Sequence record: PZ452596.1
Reading direction: 5' to 3' (one strand)
From: a phage
DNA length: 64,000 nucleotides
A program made the position numbers and the translations under genes. Positions 17,924 through 57,817 of this stretch are shown here, piece after piece. The notes under the pieces were generated by a model. That model was not told where the DNA came from and searched no databases. It was given only the letters and a program-made list of their open reading frames with translations. The first letter of the stretch is position 1. The number at the start of each line of letters is the position of its first letter.

Positions 17924-20900
17924 ATGGCCGAGATTAAAAGAAAGTTCAGAGCAGAAGATGGTCTGGACGCAGGTGGCGATAAAATAATCAACGTAGCTTT
18001 AGCTGATCGTGCCGTAGGAACTGACGGTGTTAACGTTGATTACTTAATTCAAGAAAACACAGTTCAACAATACGATCCAACTCGTGGATATTTAAAAGAT
18101 TTTGTAATCATTTATGATAACCGCTTTTGGGCTGCTATAAATGATATTCCAAAACCAGCAGGAGCTTTTAATAGCGTACGCTGGAGAGCGTTACGTACTG
18201 ATGCAAACTGGACAACTGTTTCATCAGGACCTTATCAATTAAAATCGGGTGAATCAATTTCAGTTGATACTGCAGCTGGTAATGACATTACATTTACTTT
18301 ACCATCTACCCCAATTGACGGTGATACTATCGTTCTCCAAGATATTGGAGGAAAACCTGGAGTTAATCAAGTTTTAATTACAGCTCCGGTACAAAGCATT
18401 GTAAATTTTAGAGGTCAGCAAGTACGTTCAGTACTAATGACTCATCCAAAATCACAGATAGTTTTAATTTTTAGTAATCGTCTGTGGCAAATGTATGTCG
18501 CTGATTATAGTAGAGAAGCTGTAGTTGTAACGCCTGCGAGTCTCTATCAGGCGCAATCAAACGATTTTATCGTACGTAGATTTACTTCTGCTTCAGCAAT
18601 TAATATTAAACTTCCAAGATTTGCCAATCATGGCGATATTATTAATTTCGTTGATTTGGATAAATTAAATCCTCTTTATCACACAATTGTTACTACATAT
18701 GATGAAACAACTTCAGTACAAGAAGTTGGAACTCATTCCATTGAAGGTCGTACATCGATTGACGGTTTCTTGATGTTTGATGATAATGAGAAATTGTGGA
18801 GATTGTTTGATGGGGATAGTAAAGCACGTTTACGCATTATAACAACTAATTCTAATATTCGTCCAAATGAAGAAGTCATGGTATTTGGCGCGAATAATGG
18901 AACAACCCAAACAATTGAACTTCAGCTTCCGACTGATATTTCTGTTGGTGATACTGTCAAAATTTCCATGAATTACATGAGAAAAGGACAAACGGTTAAA
19001 ATCAAAGCTGCAGGTGAAGATAAAATTGCTTCTTCAGTTCAATTGCTGCAATTCCCAAAACGCTCAGAATATCCACCTGAAGCTGAGTGGGTTACAGTTC
19101 AAGAATTAGTTTTTAACGGTGAAACTAATTATGTTCCAGTTTTGGAGCTTGCTTATATTGAAGATTCTGATGGAAAATATTGGGTTGTACAGCAAAACGT
19201 TCCAACTGTAGAAAGAGTAGATTCTTTAAATGATTCTACTAGAGCAAGATTAGGGGTAATTGCTTTAGCTACACAAGCTCAAGCTAATGCTGATTTAGAA
19301 AATTCTCCACAAAAAGAATTGGCAATTACTCCAGAAACGTTAGCTAATCGTACTGCTACAGAAACTCGTAGAGGTATTGCAAGAATAGCAACTACTGCTC
19401 AAGTTAACCAGGATACTACATTCTCTTTTGCTGATGATATTATCATCACTCCTAAAAAGCTGAATGAAAGAACAGCTACTGAAACTCGCAGAGGTGTTGC
19501 TGAAATTGCTACACAGCAAGAAACTAATACAGGAACCGATGATACTACAATCATCACTCCTAAAAAGCTTCAAGCTCGACAAGGTTCTGAATCATTATCT
19601 GGTATTGTAACTTTTGTATCTACTGCAGGTGCTACTCCAGCTTCTAGCCGTGAATTAAATGGTACGAATGTTTATAATAAAAACACTAATAATTTAGTTG
19701 TTTCACCTAAAGCTTTGGATCAGTATAAAGCTACTCCAACACAGCAAGGTGCAGTAATTTTAGCAGTTGAAAGTGAAGTAATTGCTGGACAAAGTCAGGA
19801 AGGATGGGCAAATGCGGTTGTAACACCAGAAACGTTACATAAAAAGACATCAACTGATGGAAGAATTGGTTTAATTGAAATTGCTACGCAAAGTGAAGTT
19901 AACACAGGAACTGATTATACTCGTGCAGTCACTCCTAAAACTTTAAATGACCGTAGAGCAACTGAAAGTTTAAGTGGTATAGCTGAAATTGCTACGCAAG
20001 TTGAATTCGACGCAGGCGTCGACGATACTCGTATCTCTACACCATTAAAAATTAAAACCAGATTTAATAGTACTGATCGTACTTCTGTTGTTGCTCTATC
20101 TGGATTAGTTGAATCAGGAACTCTCTGGGACCATTATACCCTCAATATTCTTGAAGCAAATGAGACACAACGTGGTACACTTCGTGTAGCTACACAAGTT
20201 GAAGCTGCTGCAGGAACATTAGATAATGTTTTAATAACTCCTAAAAAGCTTTTAGGTACTAAATCTACTGAAGCGCAAGAAGGTGTTATTAAAGTTGCAA
20301 CTCAGTCTGAAACTGTGACTGGAACATCAGCAAATACTGCTGTATCTCCAAAAAATTTAAAATGGATCGTGCAGAGCGAACCTACTTGGGCAGCAACTAC
20401 TGCAGTAAGAGGCTTTGTTAAAACTTCATCTGGTTCAATTACATTCGTTGGTAATGATACGGTAGGTTCAACACAGCCATTAGAATCATATGAGAAAAAT
20501 AGCTATGCAGTATCACCATATGAATTAAACCGTGTATTAGCAAATTATCTGCCGTTAAAAGCAAAAGCTGTAGATAGTAATTTATTGGATGGTCTAGATT
20601 CATCTCAGTTCATTCGTAGGGATATTGCGCAGACGGTTAATGGTTCACTAACCTTAACCCAACAAACGAATCTGAGTGCCCCTCTTGTATCATCTAGTAC
20701 TGCTACGTTTGGTGGTTCAGTTACGGCAAATAGTGTACTAACTATTTCTAATACTGGAACAGAAACTCATCTGATTTTTGAGAAAGGACCTCAAACTGGA
20801 ACTAACCAAGCACAGACGGTGACTATTAGAGTGTGGGGTAATCAATTTAGTGGGGAATCAGATACAACACGTTCTACTGTATTTGAAGTTGGTGATGAAA

Positions 20901-53140: not shown

Positions 53141-53341
53141 ATGGTACAAAAATTAATGGCACTTGTTAATGCCATCAAAGGTAATAAAAAGCGTATAGCT
53201 TTTACTATTTCTGCTATGGTAGGAATTTTACTCTGGAACTTTATTTTATCACCAATTGCAATTGCGCATGGTGTTAATATTCCAGTAGTTACTCTTGATA
53301 CATTTGTAGATTTAGCATTTGCTTTAGTTGGGTTAATTTAA
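53141..53341 (+). CDS. putative small membrane protein, antisense to the early transcription unit
   Basis: 66-aa ORF with strong SD (TAAGGAGG, 6 nt spacer); two hydrophobic segments. Confidence 0.3.
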   Translation: MVQKLMALVNAIKGNKKRIAFTISAMVGILLWNFILSPIAIAHGVNIPVVTLDTFVDLAFALVGLI

Positions 53342-54368: not shown

Positions 54369-54533
54369 TTACTCTTCTTTTTCTTTAGATTCCTCTTTTT
54401 TCTTTTTAGGAATCTGTTCAGGACCTTTATTTACTACAGCACCTGATGTTGTTCCAGTAGAGATATTTTCAGGATTACCACCTGAATCTCCAGCAACCAT
54501 ATCTTCTTTAATAAATTCTTTATATGTTTTCAT
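54369..54533 (-). CDS. hypothetical small protein
   Basis: 54-aa ORF MKTYKEFIKEDMVAG... found by hand; ATG lies inside the 49-bp repeat. Confidence 0.35.
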   Translation of the reverse strand: MKTYKEFIKEDMVAGDSGGNPENISTGTTSGAVVNKGPEQIPKKKKEESKEKEE

Positions 54534-54579
54534 ATTAACCTCTATTCATAAAAGCATTAAAAATTTGGTCATCAATAGA
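54531..54579. repeat. 49-bp direct repeat, copy 1
   Basis: catattaa[c]ctctattcataaaagcattaaaaatttggtcatcaataga; 48/49 identical to copy 2. Confidence 0.9.
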
Positions 54580-54891
54580 TGGAATAGCAACCTTTTCGGC
54601 ATCATTTAGCAAATCATTAATTTCATCAGATAGCATAACACATGTGCCTTTATTTCCTGTAATTGTTACTGCACAATTACGAACGTTTTCTTTATCAAAT
54701 TTTAGGTTAATATTTTCGTAGTGAAAATCCTTTAATGCCGAGTATATCTTTAAAATGAAATTGTCTTTTACTACAATAAACCCAACTTCACTATTAAAAC
54801 GTGGTTCATGGAAACTGTAATAAACCTTTTCATCTATGAAATCGTATGAAATTTTTTCCATTTTTAAATATGAAAATTCAGAACTATACAT
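54535..54891 (-). CDS. 61.x-family paralog (short)
   Basis: 118 aa; C-terminal SIDDQIFNAFMNR identical to next ORF; one copy of GFIVVKDN domain. Confidence 0.5.
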   Translation of the reverse strand: MYSSEFSYLKMEKISYDFIDEKVYYSFHEPRFNSEVGFIVVKDNFILKIYSALKDFHYENINLKFDKENVRNCAVTITGNKGTCVMLSDEINDLLNDAEKVAIPSIDDQIFNAFMNRG

Positions 54892-54937
54892 ATTAATCTC
54901 TATTCATAAAAGCATTAAAAATTTGGTCATCAATAGA
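54889..54937. repeat. 49-bp direct repeat, copy 2
   Basis: same sequence 358 bp away; spans C-terminal 13 codons, stop and next ATG of the paralog. Confidence 0.9.
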
Positions 54938-55534
54938 AATATTTACTTTAGACTGTTTTTCAGATGGCAATTCATATCCACATATTACAATTTTATGATC
55001 AATATCAAAATACACAGAAGCAATATGATTAATGATATTTTCAGTGAAGTCTAAATCAACATCAATATCTTTTTGACCACAGCCCAAAGGATAAATAATG
55101 CGAGTAATTCGATTATCTTTAACAAATATTCCACCGACATACTCTGTACTGCGTTTAAAGTCTACACGCCGACGAAATGAAAAATATTCAGGCTCTCTAT
55201 GAGCTCGGCTCATAGGACACAACGAGTAACTAGAATAAGAGATGTCAAATCCTACACCTTCAATATGAGCCAACGTGTCATGATTAAACCAATTATAATC
55301 GTACGCCAAATCCATTATATTGTAATATGTGAAAGGCACCGGATTAACATCATGTGTTGTACCTTTAAAATCTGCCCAGGCAACGATTTCGTTATCTTTA
55401 ACAATTACAAAAATTGTGCCAATAAGATATCCACGGTTATTTTCATCAGGCGTTATATTATAACATTGTGCATCAGGAAATTTACCGTATTTAAACGGTG
55501 GATTTTTGTGCATATAATAAATCATATTATTCAC
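54893..55534 (-). CDS. 61.x-family paralog (long; 61.2 position)
   Basis: 213 aa; two copies of the G.I.V.KDN domain; same C-terminal 13 aa as the short paralog. Confidence 0.5.
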   Translation of the reverse strand: MNNMIYYMHKNPPFKYGKFPDAQCYNITPDENNRGYLIGTIFVIVKDNEIVAWADFKGTTHDVNPVPFTYYNIMDLAYDYNWFNHDTLAHIEGVGFDISYSSYSLCPMSRAHREPEYFSFRRRVDFKRSTEYVGGIFVKDNRITRIIYPLGCGQKDIDVDLDFTENIINHIASVYFDIDHKIVICGYELPSEKQSKVNISIDDQIFNAFMNRD

Positions 55535-55820
55535 CTGTGATTTCGGTTACGATATTTTTGTTATTAAAGTTTTTATCGCAATACAGAACATAATTATACT
55601 GCATTACACCACCAGACTTAAGCTGTTTTTGTACTTCAGCTTTCATTTCAGGACGATCACGCTCAACGATATTCATAATATCTGCTTCAATCTGAGTTTC
55701 AACCTCAGTCTGATCTGCAGTCATAGACCATTCGCACAAATCTTTATCATAACCCGCCATAGCAGGCTGAGCAGCACAAGAAGCCAAAGCAAAAATTGCA
55801 GCAAAAATAAATTTTTTCAT
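55527..55820 (-). CDS. sp: Spackle periplasmic protein (lysozyme inhibitor / superinfection exclusion)
   Basis: 97 aa, signal peptide MKKFIFAAIFALASCAAQPAMA; matches T4 Sp. Confidence 0.85.
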   Translation of the reverse strand: MKKFIFAAIFALASCAAQPAMAGYDKDLCEWSMTADQTEVETQIEADIMNIVERDRPEMKAEVQKQLKSGGVMQYNYVLYCDKNFNNKNIVTEITGE

Positions 55821-55880
55821 GATAATCTCCTCAGTAGTTTATGTTTATATAGTATCTCAATTTCCAACAAAAGTAAATAG

Positions 55881-56183
55881 TTATTTTAAAACTTCTGCGT
55901 AATCACATGTTACAAACTGTTTCTCTAGCTTGACGATTTTACGAAAGTATCTTTTACATTGACGAATCTGCCGCTTCGTAGGGCGCACAGCAAACTTAAT
56001 AAATTCTACTCGACCAAATGGAGGGCTTTCTTCCGCTGGAATATCTAACACCAATTCCCACGTATCCGCAATAAGTGCCTTGAATTGAGTATTTTTCCTG
56101 ACATTATACGGAGTAGGTTTAAATAAAACCGTATGCATATTACCCTCGCCAATCAGATTCAAAAACTTTTTTATCATTAACAA
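55881..56183 (-). CDS. hypothetical protein (61.4 position)
   Basis: 100-aa ORF. Confidence 0.5.
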   Translation of the reverse strand: MLMIKKFLNLIGEGNMHTVLFKPTPYNVRKNTQFKALIADTWELVLDIPAEESPPFGRVEFIKFAVRPTKRQIRQCKRYFRKIVKLEKQFVTCDYAEVLK

Positions 56184-56331
56184 ATGCTTTAACTAAAGCT
56201 TTATTAACTTCAGCGAGTTGTGAAGTGACCCATAGAACTTGGTCTCTATCAGACACATCCATAGTGATTTCTTTGGTAAACATATTACCATTTTCAAACC
56301 AGCCAATAAAAACAACCTTTGCTAATTCCAT
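56140..56331 (-). CDS. dmd: Dmd-like antitoxin (inhibitor of RnlA/LsoA)
   Basis: 63-aa ORF immediately downstream of gene 41, the T4 dmd position; sequence identity not verified. Confidence 0.55.
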   Translation of the reverse strand: MELAKVVFIGWFENGNMFTKEITMDVSDRDQVLWVTSQLAEVNKALVKAFVNDKKVFESDWRG

Positions 56332-56349: not shown

Positions 56350-56395
56350 CCAACAAGACTACTATACCATAGTCTTGTCAGCTTGTAAACTAAAA
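56350..56395 (-). promoter_or_regulatory. early promoter candidate upstream of dmd
   Basis: minus strand GTTTACA then ATGGTATAGT -10-like. Confidence 0.4.
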
Positions 56396-57817
56396 TTTTA
56401 ATTCATTTGCTAAAGCATCTAACTGAGCTCGAGTGGATTCATTTCTTTGATAGCGATTCTGTTCAGCCTGAATCTGTTGTGAACCTGCTACTTCACTCAC
56501 TTCAGTTGGAGTAGAATCTTGTTCAATTTCTACCCATTTTTGATTTCCTTTTTGAACACCCATCAAAAACTTATTCCACTTATTCTTATCACCATATCGT
56601 GATTTGATTTGCTTAATGAGTTGCTGTTCAGCAGCTGCTAGCTCCTCGGTTTCAATGACCGCAAGCATAAAATCAGCTGTCGCTGGAAGACCAGCAGATT
56701 CTGCGATATCACTCATGTTAACATCAGAAGAGTCCCAAGCTTGTTTACCGACCTGTGCTGCAGTCCAAAGAACAGTTTCGGTTTCAACAGCAAGAGCACG
56801 CAATTCCTCTGCAATAGCTTTAACAGTTGTGTAACTATTTTCTGAATAAACTCTAATGCGGCAAGATTTACAAATACCTAGATAGTCGACAATAATGATT
56901 GTTGGAACAAAATTCTTTTTGAGCTTCAATTCATTCAAGAGAGACCTGAATGTGTTAGCATCTGCCCCACCAGTAGGGTACTGTTTAACAATTAAACGAC
57001 CGAGAGTAGATTTCTCACGCCATTTTTCCATTTTTCCTTTATACTCAGCGTAAGAAATATGCCCATCATCAATGTCATCAAGAGAAACATCAAGCATATT
57101 AGCATCAATACGCTTAGCACAGACTTCTTCTGCCATTTCCATGGAAATGTAAAGAACATTATGTCCGAGCTGCAAATAATCTGCTGCCAATGAACACAGA
57201 CCTAATGACTTACCAACGTTAACGCCAGCCATTAAAACGTTCAGTGTTCCAGTCTCAGCTCCACCTTTAGTAATTTTGTTCAGAATTCTGAGTTTAAATG
57301 GAACCTTACGAGCTTTATTCATATAAGATAGCCAACGTGCTTCGTAGTCATCCATCCAATCATGACCAACGTAACTATCAAATGAAATTGATAATGCCTG
57401 GCGCATGATGTCAGGAATAGCACCAACATCCGGCATTTTCTTATTTCGTTTTTCCGGAGGAAGCTCAGCATTAGTTTGAATTTCGATTATTTTAGACGTA
57501 GCATTAAACATCGCCCTTTGCTGAACATATTTTTCTGTTTCTTTTACTAACCAGCTGTGGTCTTCCGGAGAATCAGCCAGTTTTGAAATAAGTGTTTTTA
57601 CACCAGAATATTCTGTTTCAGTAAATGAACTATTTTCTAATGCAACATTTAACGCATTAATAGATGGAACGCTATGATACTCATTAACATGAGATTTAAT
57701 TAATTTGAATGTATTTTTAGCTGGACCACTTTCAAAATATTCTGAATCCATATATGGCCAAACTTTTGAAAAATAAGCTTGATCAAATATGAGATGAGAA
57801 AGAATAATTTCTACCAC
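56390..57817 (-). CDS. 41: replicative DNA helicase gp41 (DnaB family)
   Basis: 475 aa, Walker A GVNVGKS; matches T4 gp41. Confidence 0.95.
   Translation of the reverse strand: MVEIILSHLIFDQAYFSKVWPYMDSEYFESGPAKNTFKLIKSHVNEYHSVPSINALNVALENSSFTETEYSGVKTLISKLADSPEDHSWLVKETEKYVQQRAMFNATSKIIEIQTNAELPPEKRNKKMPDVGAIPDIMRQALSISFDSYVGHDWMDDYEARWLSYMNKARKVPFKLRILNKITKGGAETGTLNVLMAGVNVGKSLGLCSLAADYLQLGHNVLYISMEMAEEVCAKRIDANMLDVSLDDIDDGHISYAEYKGKMEKWREKSTLGRLIVKQYPTGGADANTFRSLLNELKLKKNFVPTIIIVDYLGICKSCRIRVYSENSYTTVKAIAEELRALAVETETVLWTAAQVGKQAWDSSDVNMSDIAESAGLPATADFMLAVIETEELAAAEQQLIKQIKSRYGDKNKWNKFLMGVQKGNQKWVEIEQDSTPTEVSEVAGSQQIQAEQNRYQRNESTRAQLDALANELKF

Follow-up and report, generated by a model that had tools for sequence, protein, structure and literature searches.

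The 64,000-nucleotide stretch of phage DNA analysed here (PZ452596.1; hereafter the window) contains, between the genes for helicase 41 and primase 61, two adjacent open reading frames (ORFs) that end in near-identical copies of a 49-bp direct repeat: the anti-defence gene adfA (61.2) and a short gene of 118 amino acids. We propose that the repeat is the common 3' module of two AdfA-family genes lying in tandem, an explanation that we consider likely as a whole. The module would do three jobs simultaneously: it encodes an invariant C-terminal tail peptide, its DNA would, in Tequatrovirus, be the MotA/AsiA-dependent middle promoter P61, and it would supply the Shine-Dalgarno sequence and the stop/start junction of the next gene. 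Two copies would be present because two family members stand in tandem, and the near-identity of their ends would be kept by these stacked constraints, possibly with occasional gene conversion.

The 2.1-kb segment 54300-56400 of the window is a 100% match to phage RB27 (NC_025448/KM607000), and many other Tequatrovirus genomes are 93-95% identical to it. The locus corresponds to a well-known gene cluster of T4-type phages, which lies between helicase 41 and primase 61. From the helicase to the primase, the order is dmd, 61.4, sp, adfA (61.2), the 118-amino-acid gene and 61.1, all on the minus strand.

Two adjacent genes end in the same 49-bp repeat

A sequence-only reading of the window had described ORFs of 118 and 213 amino acids with identical 13-residue ends, encoded by a 49-bp repeat, and all of this was found as described. 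The two copies (54531-54579 and 54889-54937, minus strand) are identical at 48 of 49 nt and spaced 358 nt apart. When the whole 64-kb window was searched with up to 3 mismatches allowed, these two copies only were returned, compared with 0.00 expected from 100 shuffles. The downstream copy comprises the last 13 codons, a Gly codon and the stop of the 118-amino-acid gene, a T and the ATG of 61.1, while the upstream copy comprises the last 13 codons, an Asp codon and the stop of adfA, a T and the ATG of the 118-amino-acid gene. On the coding strand, the repeat reads TCT ATT GAT GAC CAA ATT TTT AAT GCT TTT ATG AAT AGA G(G/A)T TAA T ATG, and both ORFs end in SIDDQIFNAFMNR followed by G (short protein) or D (long protein). 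The repeat does encode the shared residues, as had been supposed, but it is not confined to coding sequence and runs through the stop into the next ATG.

The sole mismatch between the copies changes GGT to GAT and falls in the spacer of the promoter described below, which is also Shine-Dalgarno sequence. The onset of identity is sharp: 5' of the Ser codon the two genes are unrelated at the nucleotide level, and their bodies hold no further nucleotide repeat (49 of 358 nt are repeated). Comparison with T4 61.1 and 61.2 revealed that the downstream copy matches the T4 61.2/61.1 junction at every base. A further repeat, an inverted one within adfA (54979-54997/55313-55331), was judged to be due to chance.

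The long ORF is AdfA

The long ORF (54893-55525, minus strand) encodes anti-DarT factor A. It scored 450.5 bits against Pfam family PF23813, for which the gathering cut-off is 27 bits (E 8.4e-136), and its RefSeq note reads '61.2'. The length of 213 amino acids corresponds to a GTG start (54893-55534), whereas RefSeq places the start at the ATG at 55525, giving 210 amino acids. Its position, directly downstream of sp and upstream of 61.1 and 61, is as expected for AdfA. The statement in the sequence-only reading that T4 61.2 inhibits a host toxin-antitoxin defence was essentially right, as T4 gp61.2 is AdfA and binds DarT1 of the DarTG1 toxin-antitoxin defence (PMC11257639). The RB69 allele of AdfA gains DarT1 binding by the substitution R164H, and T4, T6 and most relatives naturally have His (PMC11257639; PMC11481870). 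RB27 AdfA possesses His at the position equivalent to RB69 R164, within ...TENIINHIASVYF, and in the structural model this specificity residue (His/Arg164, RB69 numbering) sits in the helix of the C-terminal half.

AdfA has two widely divergent allelic forms over its first ~60 residues, one T4-like (MLYQMHKCKDTYKYKG...) and the other RB69-like (MIYYMHKNPPFKYGKFPDAQ...). RB27, although a Tequatrovirus, has the RB69-like form (54893-55525 compared with T4 61.2, L002 2001-2627). Each form is found in genomes that have the short gene and in genomes that do not, a pattern indicative of mosaic recombination within adfA.

An invariant tail peptide marks the gene slot downstream of sp

The tail, (S/A)(I/V)DDQIFNAFM(N/K)(R/K)(G/D), is borne by every protein found directly downstream of sp, whatever its body. 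Among 83 tail instances, the nine core codons DDQIFNAFM occur in 11 distinct nucleotide versions, in which the 7 variable sites are all third codon positions and amino-acid changes number 0. The regular expression used for this count demanded the exact core, and whole-protein searches found the core in every member too. The core is likewise invariant in the alignments A1 and A2 and in the distant members P0006, P0022 and P0025.

In the models, the tail forms a short helix with a predicted local distance difference test score (pLDDT) of 51-58, placed after a linker that varies in length and sequence, and the body of the short protein is well predicted. As modelled, such an arrangement would be typical of a binding motif on a tether, with the flexible tail helix contacting a conserved partner.

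The tail codons contain the middle promoter P61

The T4 middle promoter P61 has been identified experimentally, with a start site at 19122 (PMC2988021 Table 1, crediting Marshall, Sharma and Hinton 1999), and the consensus for the MotA box is (a/t)(a/t)(a/t)TGCTTtA, 12+/-1 bp from the -10 (PMC2988021). In the T4 genome (NC_000866), the 61.2 stop occupies 19134-19132, the ATG of 61.1 19130-19128, and TAATAT 19134-19129. Position 19122 lies 7 nt downstream of TAATAT, and AATGCTTTT lies 12 nt upstream of it, at 19155-19147. The coordinates of P61 match the tail DNA, so that the promoter is spelled by the AdfA tail codons N-A-F-M-N-R-G together with the stop and the next start. The T4 start site falls 8 nt into 61.1, so full-length gp61.1 cannot be made from middle transcripts. 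In the literature examined, no discussion of the overlap between P61 and the conserved AdfA tail codons was found.

RB27 is predicted to carry two P61-type promoters 358 bp apart, both on the minus strand. Copy 1, a candidate MotA-dependent middle promoter (54532-54558), has AATGCTTTT at 54558-54550, a 12-nt spacer, TAATAT at 54537-54532 and a predicted +1 near 54525. In copy 2 (54890-54916), the box is at 54916-54908, the -10 at 54895-54890 and the predicted +1 near 54883, inside the 5' end of the 118-amino-acid gene. Both copies have TAATGCTTTT (9/10 consensus positions), the 12-nt spacer and TAATAT. From the MotA box to +1, copy 1 is base-for-base that of T4, and copy 2 differs at one spacer base. 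The -10 hexamer TAATAT starts with the stop codon (TAA), continues with the intervening T and ends with the first two bases of the next ATG, while the last codons, AGAGGT, give the Shine-Dalgarno sequence (GAGG) of the next gene. Moreover, in the GenBank record of phage Lutter (MT682714), AATGCTTTTATGAATA(A/G)AGGTTAATAT is annotated as 'promoter' at both tails. The pattern WWTGCTTY-N13-TANNNT occurs 6 times in the window, compared with 1.26 expected.

Two points weigh against this promoter reading. Mapped activity holds for the T4 copy, the RB27 copies resting on sequence identity, and the core of the MotA box is not kept in other genera, where it reads TGCCTT, TGCATT or CGCTT. Promoter constraint therefore cannot explain the conservation of the tail in those genera, and outside Tequatrovirus the peptide alone explains it.

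The two copies also differ in a regular way. In all of the 16 sampled genomes with two tandem tail-bearing genes (L003, L005, L007, L022-L024, L027, L044, L045, L048-L050, L052, L053, plus the window, being the loci named for this comparison), the last two codons of the upstream copy differ from those of the downstream copy: the upstream copy reads AGA GAT or AAA GGT, and the downstream copy AGA GGT (RB27 54890-54900 vs 54532-54542). Both changes turn the GAGG Shine-Dalgarno sequence before the short gene into GAGA or AAGG, and GAGG is kept in T2-type genomes, which have the short gene only. These changes might tune the translation of the short gene. In one Logan contig (SRR23924977; L060 4370-4395), the tail ends in a tandem 9-nt duplication, AGAGGCTAA AGAGGCTAA, made up of the last two codons and the stop; it resembles the AGAGGTTAA scar found after sp in T2-type phages.

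The short protein is probably a single-domain relative of AdfA

The short gene (RB27_035, RB32ORF033c type; 54535-54891, minus strand; 118 amino acids) scored 34.1 bits against PF23813, over columns 113-211 of 211. In PHROGs, the two AdfA-like genes belong to separate families with cross-matches. Pairwise alignment of the two ORFs by BLASTP gave 36/105 identical positions, 13 of them in the tail, and the bodies are ~25% identical.

The AlphaFold models support a similarity of the bodies. The short protein (AF2 pLDDT 83, with the core above 90 and the tail helix low) has strands at 8-17, 22-29, 34-42, 45-51 and 56-64 and a helix at 67-78, followed by an extra strand and helix and by the tail helix at 106-115. 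The model of AdfA has five strands and a helix in its N-terminal half (strands 2-8, 20-26, 38-43, 46-51 and 57-64; helix 67-77) and again in its C-terminal half (strands 100-105, 114-121, 126-136, 139-144 and 153-159; helix 162-173), with a tail helix at 198-207. In each of the three domains, one in the short protein and two in AdfA, the hairpin between strands 3 and 4 carries the motif G-x-I-x-V-K-D-N-x-I. A Foldseek search of BFVD with the short model returned the orthologue from Gaprivervirus (E 1e-11), a 212-amino-acid AdfA (5e-4) and a 145-amino-acid protein of phage VR25 (9e-4), with a probability of 1.0 for the AdfA and 145-amino-acid matches. The reciprocal search with the AdfA model recovered the short family (E 3e-3). 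On these models, AdfA is probably made of two copies of a five-strand-plus-helix domain that is single in the short protein. The same arrangement had been suggested from the sequence alone; the AlphaFold element order and the shared VKDN hairpin are in line with it, and the tail-less sequences give it marginal support (shuffle z 3.2-3.9; hhalign P ~0.002). The short protein appears most to resemble the C-terminal half of AdfA, which bears the DarT1 specificity.

Several observations weigh against common descent of the bodies. Deprived of its tail, the short protein gave no Pfam match at E<=10, and its tail-less hhalign comparison with AdfA reached a probability of 12-22% (P 0.0025 at a probability of 12%). 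When the shuffle comparison was restricted to the short body and the body of the AdfA C-terminal half, the z score was 3.9, 6 of 2000 shuffles reaching the score. Tail-less hhalign comparisons among the AdfA N-terminal half, the AdfA C-terminal half, the short family and the 145-amino-acid family were weak throughout (P 0.001-0.24), on shallow alignments with an effective number of sequences (Neff) of ~1.6. The AlphaFold model of AdfA has only moderate confidence (pLDDT 69.6), and the Foldseek E-values take in the shared tail.

An alternative explanation is a tail-plus-promoter cassette that acts as a mobile end module, joined by recombination to different genes downstream of sp, in which case the bodies would be unrelated and the 118-amino-acid protein would not be a true AdfA paralogue. 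The loss of the Pfam match with the tail is in line with this view, as are the 145-amino-acid body, which has no significant sequence similarity to any other body (z <= 1.9), and the fact that at least 5 body types bear the same tail in the same slot. However, the order of secondary structure elements is the same, the G-x-I-x-V-K-D-N hairpin occupies an equivalent place in all three domains, and the structural matches to AdfA and the 145-amino-acid protein have full Foldseek probability. The z score of the short body against the AdfA C-terminal half speaks in the same direction, and that of the Gaprivervirus short body against the AdfA N-terminal half is 4.5. We consider the mobile-module explanation unlikely, and regard the short protein with good confidence as a true AdfA paralogue.

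The gene pair is old

The short gene was found by tblastn in 337 phage records and is at least 95% identical in 271 of them, while AdfA, present in 487 records in total, is mostly 60-90% identical; the short gene is therefore more conserved than AdfA. By junction-specific blastn, ~158 GenBank phage records span the junction from adfA to the short gene and hence carry both genes, and ~144 records have the short gene only. A blastn count made with the T4 junction was left out of these figures, since matching pieces can be joined over the 358-bp insertion. Among the loci read, three of the four possible states were found: adfA only (T4, ECML-134), both genes (RB27, AR1, RB18, PaulHMueller, PhiZZ23, KAW1E185 and others) and the short gene only (T2, SV76, SHFML-11, ph0021); no Tequatrovirus locus among them lacks both genes. 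After the sp stop, T2-type genomes have TT AGAGGTTAATATG, corresponding to the last two tail codons, the stop and the start, and, judged by its letters, AGAGGTTAATATG reads as the scar of a lost upstream family member.

The family extends beyond Tequatrovirus. In Gaprivervirus (VR25, UPEC01, RZ), the short gene is 45-50% identical and is preceded not by AdfA but by a 145-amino-acid protein (phrog_8539) with the same tail. Other T4-like phages have the 145-amino-acid type alone, or proteins of 120 or 125 amino acids with other bodies, always directly after sp; the tails of the 145-, 120- and 125-amino-acid types end in DDQIFNAFM(N/K)R(G/D). More distant tail-bearing genes occupy the post-sp slot in two further T4-like lineages. 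A profile search of 1.84 billion representative proteins yielded five real relatives only, all from T4-like phages, and two other matches to repetitive proteins that we regard as spurious. Scans of metagenomes and IMG/VR added few loci.

The near-identity of the two tails could also be due to concerted evolution alone, gene conversion keeping the tails identical and the promoter-like reading of the upstream copy being incidental. Paralogous tails within one Tequatrovirus genome differ at 0-3/45 nt and orthologous tails between genera at 7. In UPEC01 and RZ, the tail of the 145-amino-acid gene has the synonymous variants of the short gene (CAG, TTC), and at FM(N/K)R both paralogues have N in Tequatrovirus and K in Gaprivervirus. 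In VR25, on the other hand, the 145-amino-acid gene tail does not have these variants and the two paralogue tails differ at 7/45 nt, as much as between genera, so homogenisation is sporadic at best. In addition, the genus-specific codons of Gaprivervirus all go to G or C at third positions and may reflect composition, while the identity in Tequatrovirus is explained by the mapped promoter together with the peptide constraint. Concerted evolution alone is thus an improbable explanation; occasional homogenisation is plausible and is not needed to explain RB27.

The sequence-only reading took the repeat for a sign of recent duplication. A recent tandem duplication of the adfA 3' half, with the repeat as its remnant in an unstable and expanding locus, would account for the 48/49 match of the tails, for the adjacency and common orientation of the genes, and for the match of the short gene to the C-terminal half of the AdfA profile. 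Against this, the identity stops abruptly at the Ser codon, and the rest of the 358-bp unit has no nucleotide repeat and ~25% amino-acid identity. The short gene is 95-100% conserved in ~270 of the ~300 phage records with it and has orthologues of 45-50% identity in another genus, the repeat coincides with a mapped T4 promoter, and no three-copy expansion was seen among the genomes examined. Such an event is very improbable. Because the bodies are ~25% identical, no other nucleotide repeat joins them and the Gaprivervirus short orthologues are 45-50% identical, the gene pair is of long standing. The repeat does not mark a recent duplication and is instead a gene-end module that is itself old and held by several constraints. 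An assembly or annotation artefact has next to no probability, since the identical two-gene arrangement with its repeat recurs in at least 11 independently sequenced Tequatrovirus genomes or contigs, from many independent isolates and from metagenomes, and the ~158 records noted above cover the junction.

As to how the three states might arise, the 40-49 bp of identity would be a natural substrate for T4 homologous recombination, and loss of the short gene through the repeat would yield exactly the T4 arrangement. T4-type genomes carry exactly the junction predicted for such an event, and repeat-mediated deletion of the short gene appears plausible from these junctions.

A possible role for the short protein

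We found nothing on the short gene in the literature beyond GenBank notes ('some similarity to gp61.2; RB32ORF033c'). None of the cluster's small proteins matched NCBIfam, a PDB sequence search with the AdfA profile returned nothing relevant, and the PDB, fold and NCBIfam searches together identified no known fold or family for the short protein or AdfA.

By its relationship to the C-terminal half of AdfA, the short protein may be a toxin binder, a role that we advance tentatively and consider somewhat less probable than its absence. In that role it would bind or inhibit a toxin, DarT-like or otherwise, in stoichiometric fashion. Two observations weigh against a role like that of AdfA itself. 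Where AdfA has the specificity residue His/Arg164, the short family has an invariant Cys. In addition, T2 carries the short gene only, and T2 lacking adfN becomes 10^4-fold sensitive to DarTG1; the short protein therefore does not neutralise that DarT1 at its native level. Its specificity most likely differs from that of AdfA, the target being DarT-like or another toxin.

The short gene is frameshifted in an A-run near codon 10 in 2 of ~17 sampled genomes (phage vB_Eco_T-01, PQ438391, L048 1277-1633; metagenome contig UMED01024097, L026), and the ORF restarts at Met11. The start predicted for the upstream P61-type promoter is likewise 3' of that gene's first ATG.

The surrounding gene cluster

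The cluster is bounded upstream by gene 41, the replicative helicase (56390-57817, minus strand; ORF and annotation). Between gene 41 and dmd lies a near-consensus sigma-70 promoter of early type with an extended -10 (56361-56389, minus strand; TTTACA, 17 nt, TG-TATAGT). A promoter is annotated on the equal sequence in GenBank MT682714, and from its sequence the element is probably the early promoter of the dmd-to-61 cluster.

The presence of sp and of a Dmd-like ORF between 61 and 41, noticed in the sequence-only reading, was borne out by Pfam. The dmd gene (56140-56331, minus strand) matches PF17587 over its full length (E 2.9e-27) and PHROG 2102. It encodes the antitoxin against RnlA and LsoA, which are the targets of Dmd. 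ToxIN, RnlAB and LsoAB, which had been put forward as test systems for the two paralogues, are not those of 61.2: the relevant system is DarTG, and RnlA and LsoA belong to Dmd. Gene 61.4 (55881-56138, minus strand) matches the Pfam family DUF7279. The sp gene (61.3; 55527-55820, minus strand) matches PF25676, T4_Spackle (E 1.5e-45, residues 1-96/96); Spackle is a periplasmic superinfection-exclusion protein and not an anti-defence protein. In Gaprivervirus, a second 61.4-like gene lies directly 3' of the short AdfA-like gene (L003 2859-3080, VR25_036; L005 2811-3032). VR25_036 is annotated as similar to T4 gp61.4, and the 61.4 family is therefore also duplicated in the cluster.

Downstream of the repeats are gene 61.1 (54369-54533, minus strand; 54 amino acids) and gene 61, the DNA primase served by P61 (53338-54366, minus strand), both assigned by ORF and annotation. 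The 54-residue gp61.1 matches only the C-terminal third of a 154-164-amino-acid protein encoded at the same place in RB69-like phages (phrog_2086 columns 109-154; L013 3552-4046). The dam methyltransferase gene that T4 and T2 have between genes 56 and 61 is missing from RB27, which has at that place a hydrophobic ORF of 66 amino acids (53141-53341, plus strand), annotated 'dam.1', whose 3' end overlaps that of gene 61 by 4 nt.

Significance and comparison with known systems

What is new here is modest: a widespread, probably single-domain relative of AdfA, a slot-specific family sharing a tail, a peptide dual-coded with P61, and P61 predicted twice in RB27. Dual coding is cleanly illustrated here by an invariant tail peptide that lies over a mapped middle promoter. 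Deletion or recoding of the adfA 3' end may alter transcription of the primase, which matters for the interpretation of adfA knock-outs; the published T4 adfA deletion (residues 65-196) leaves the tail intact. In addition, short repeats of near-perfect identity can occur in T4-type genomes without any recent duplication. In studies of DarTG counter-defence, phages are scored for the presence or absence of adfA; T2 and ~144 others scored as adfA-less carry the single-domain relative. The short gene is an obvious candidate neutraliser of other DarT variants or other toxins, and ~158 phages have both genes.

A broader view, which we offer as speculation and hold to be rather doubtful, is that the post-sp slot houses a toxin-neutralising family in which fast-changing bodies (at least 5: the two-domain AdfA and the 145-, 118-, 120- and 125-amino-acid types) are combined with an invariant C-terminal peptide. 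The tail DNA, with its promoter, Shine-Dalgarno sequence and stop/start junction, would be a portable recombination joint, the 118-amino-acid protein would inhibit a defence other than E. coli DarTG1, and the tail would recruit a common partner. If this were true, T-even phages could use the joint to accumulate, exchange or lose counter-defence cassettes with primase expression undisturbed.

Among known systems, AdfA (PF23813; LeRoux et al. 2022, Johannesman et al. 2024) is the closest. The 210-amino-acid gene shares with it the Pfam match given above, the same post-sp slot and His at the RB69-R164 position. The 118-amino-acid gene adjoins adfA and has the same tail; its Pfam score is above the threshold, and the C-terminal half is the part of AdfA that it resembles. 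Unlike AdfA, however, its product has a single domain, owes its Pfam score to the tail and carries an invariant Cys in place of His/Arg; moreover T2, which has only a gene of this type, is sensitive to DarTG1 once adfN is removed. With respect to T4 P61, copy 1 in RB27 is identical from the box to +1 and copy 2 keeps the box, the spacing and the -10. In contrast to T4, which has one copy, RB27 has two, 358 bp apart, of which the second would start inside the 5' end of the short gene.

Promoter-early stem-loop (PeSL) cassettes were reportedly proposed by Arbiol, Comeau and Krisch in 2010 to mediate modular shuffling in T4-type phages. Like these cassettes, the RB27 element is a short conserved regulatory repeat at gene boundaries in a plastic region whose flanking genes are variably present. 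Unlike them, it is a predicted middle promoter inside coding sequence, with a conserved peptide tail and no stem-loop. Finally, Dmd, AdfB and AdfN are small phage proteins that neutralise host toxins. Dmd and AdfB bind their toxins directly, AdfN undoes the modification, and Dmd sits in the same cluster as adfA and the short gene.

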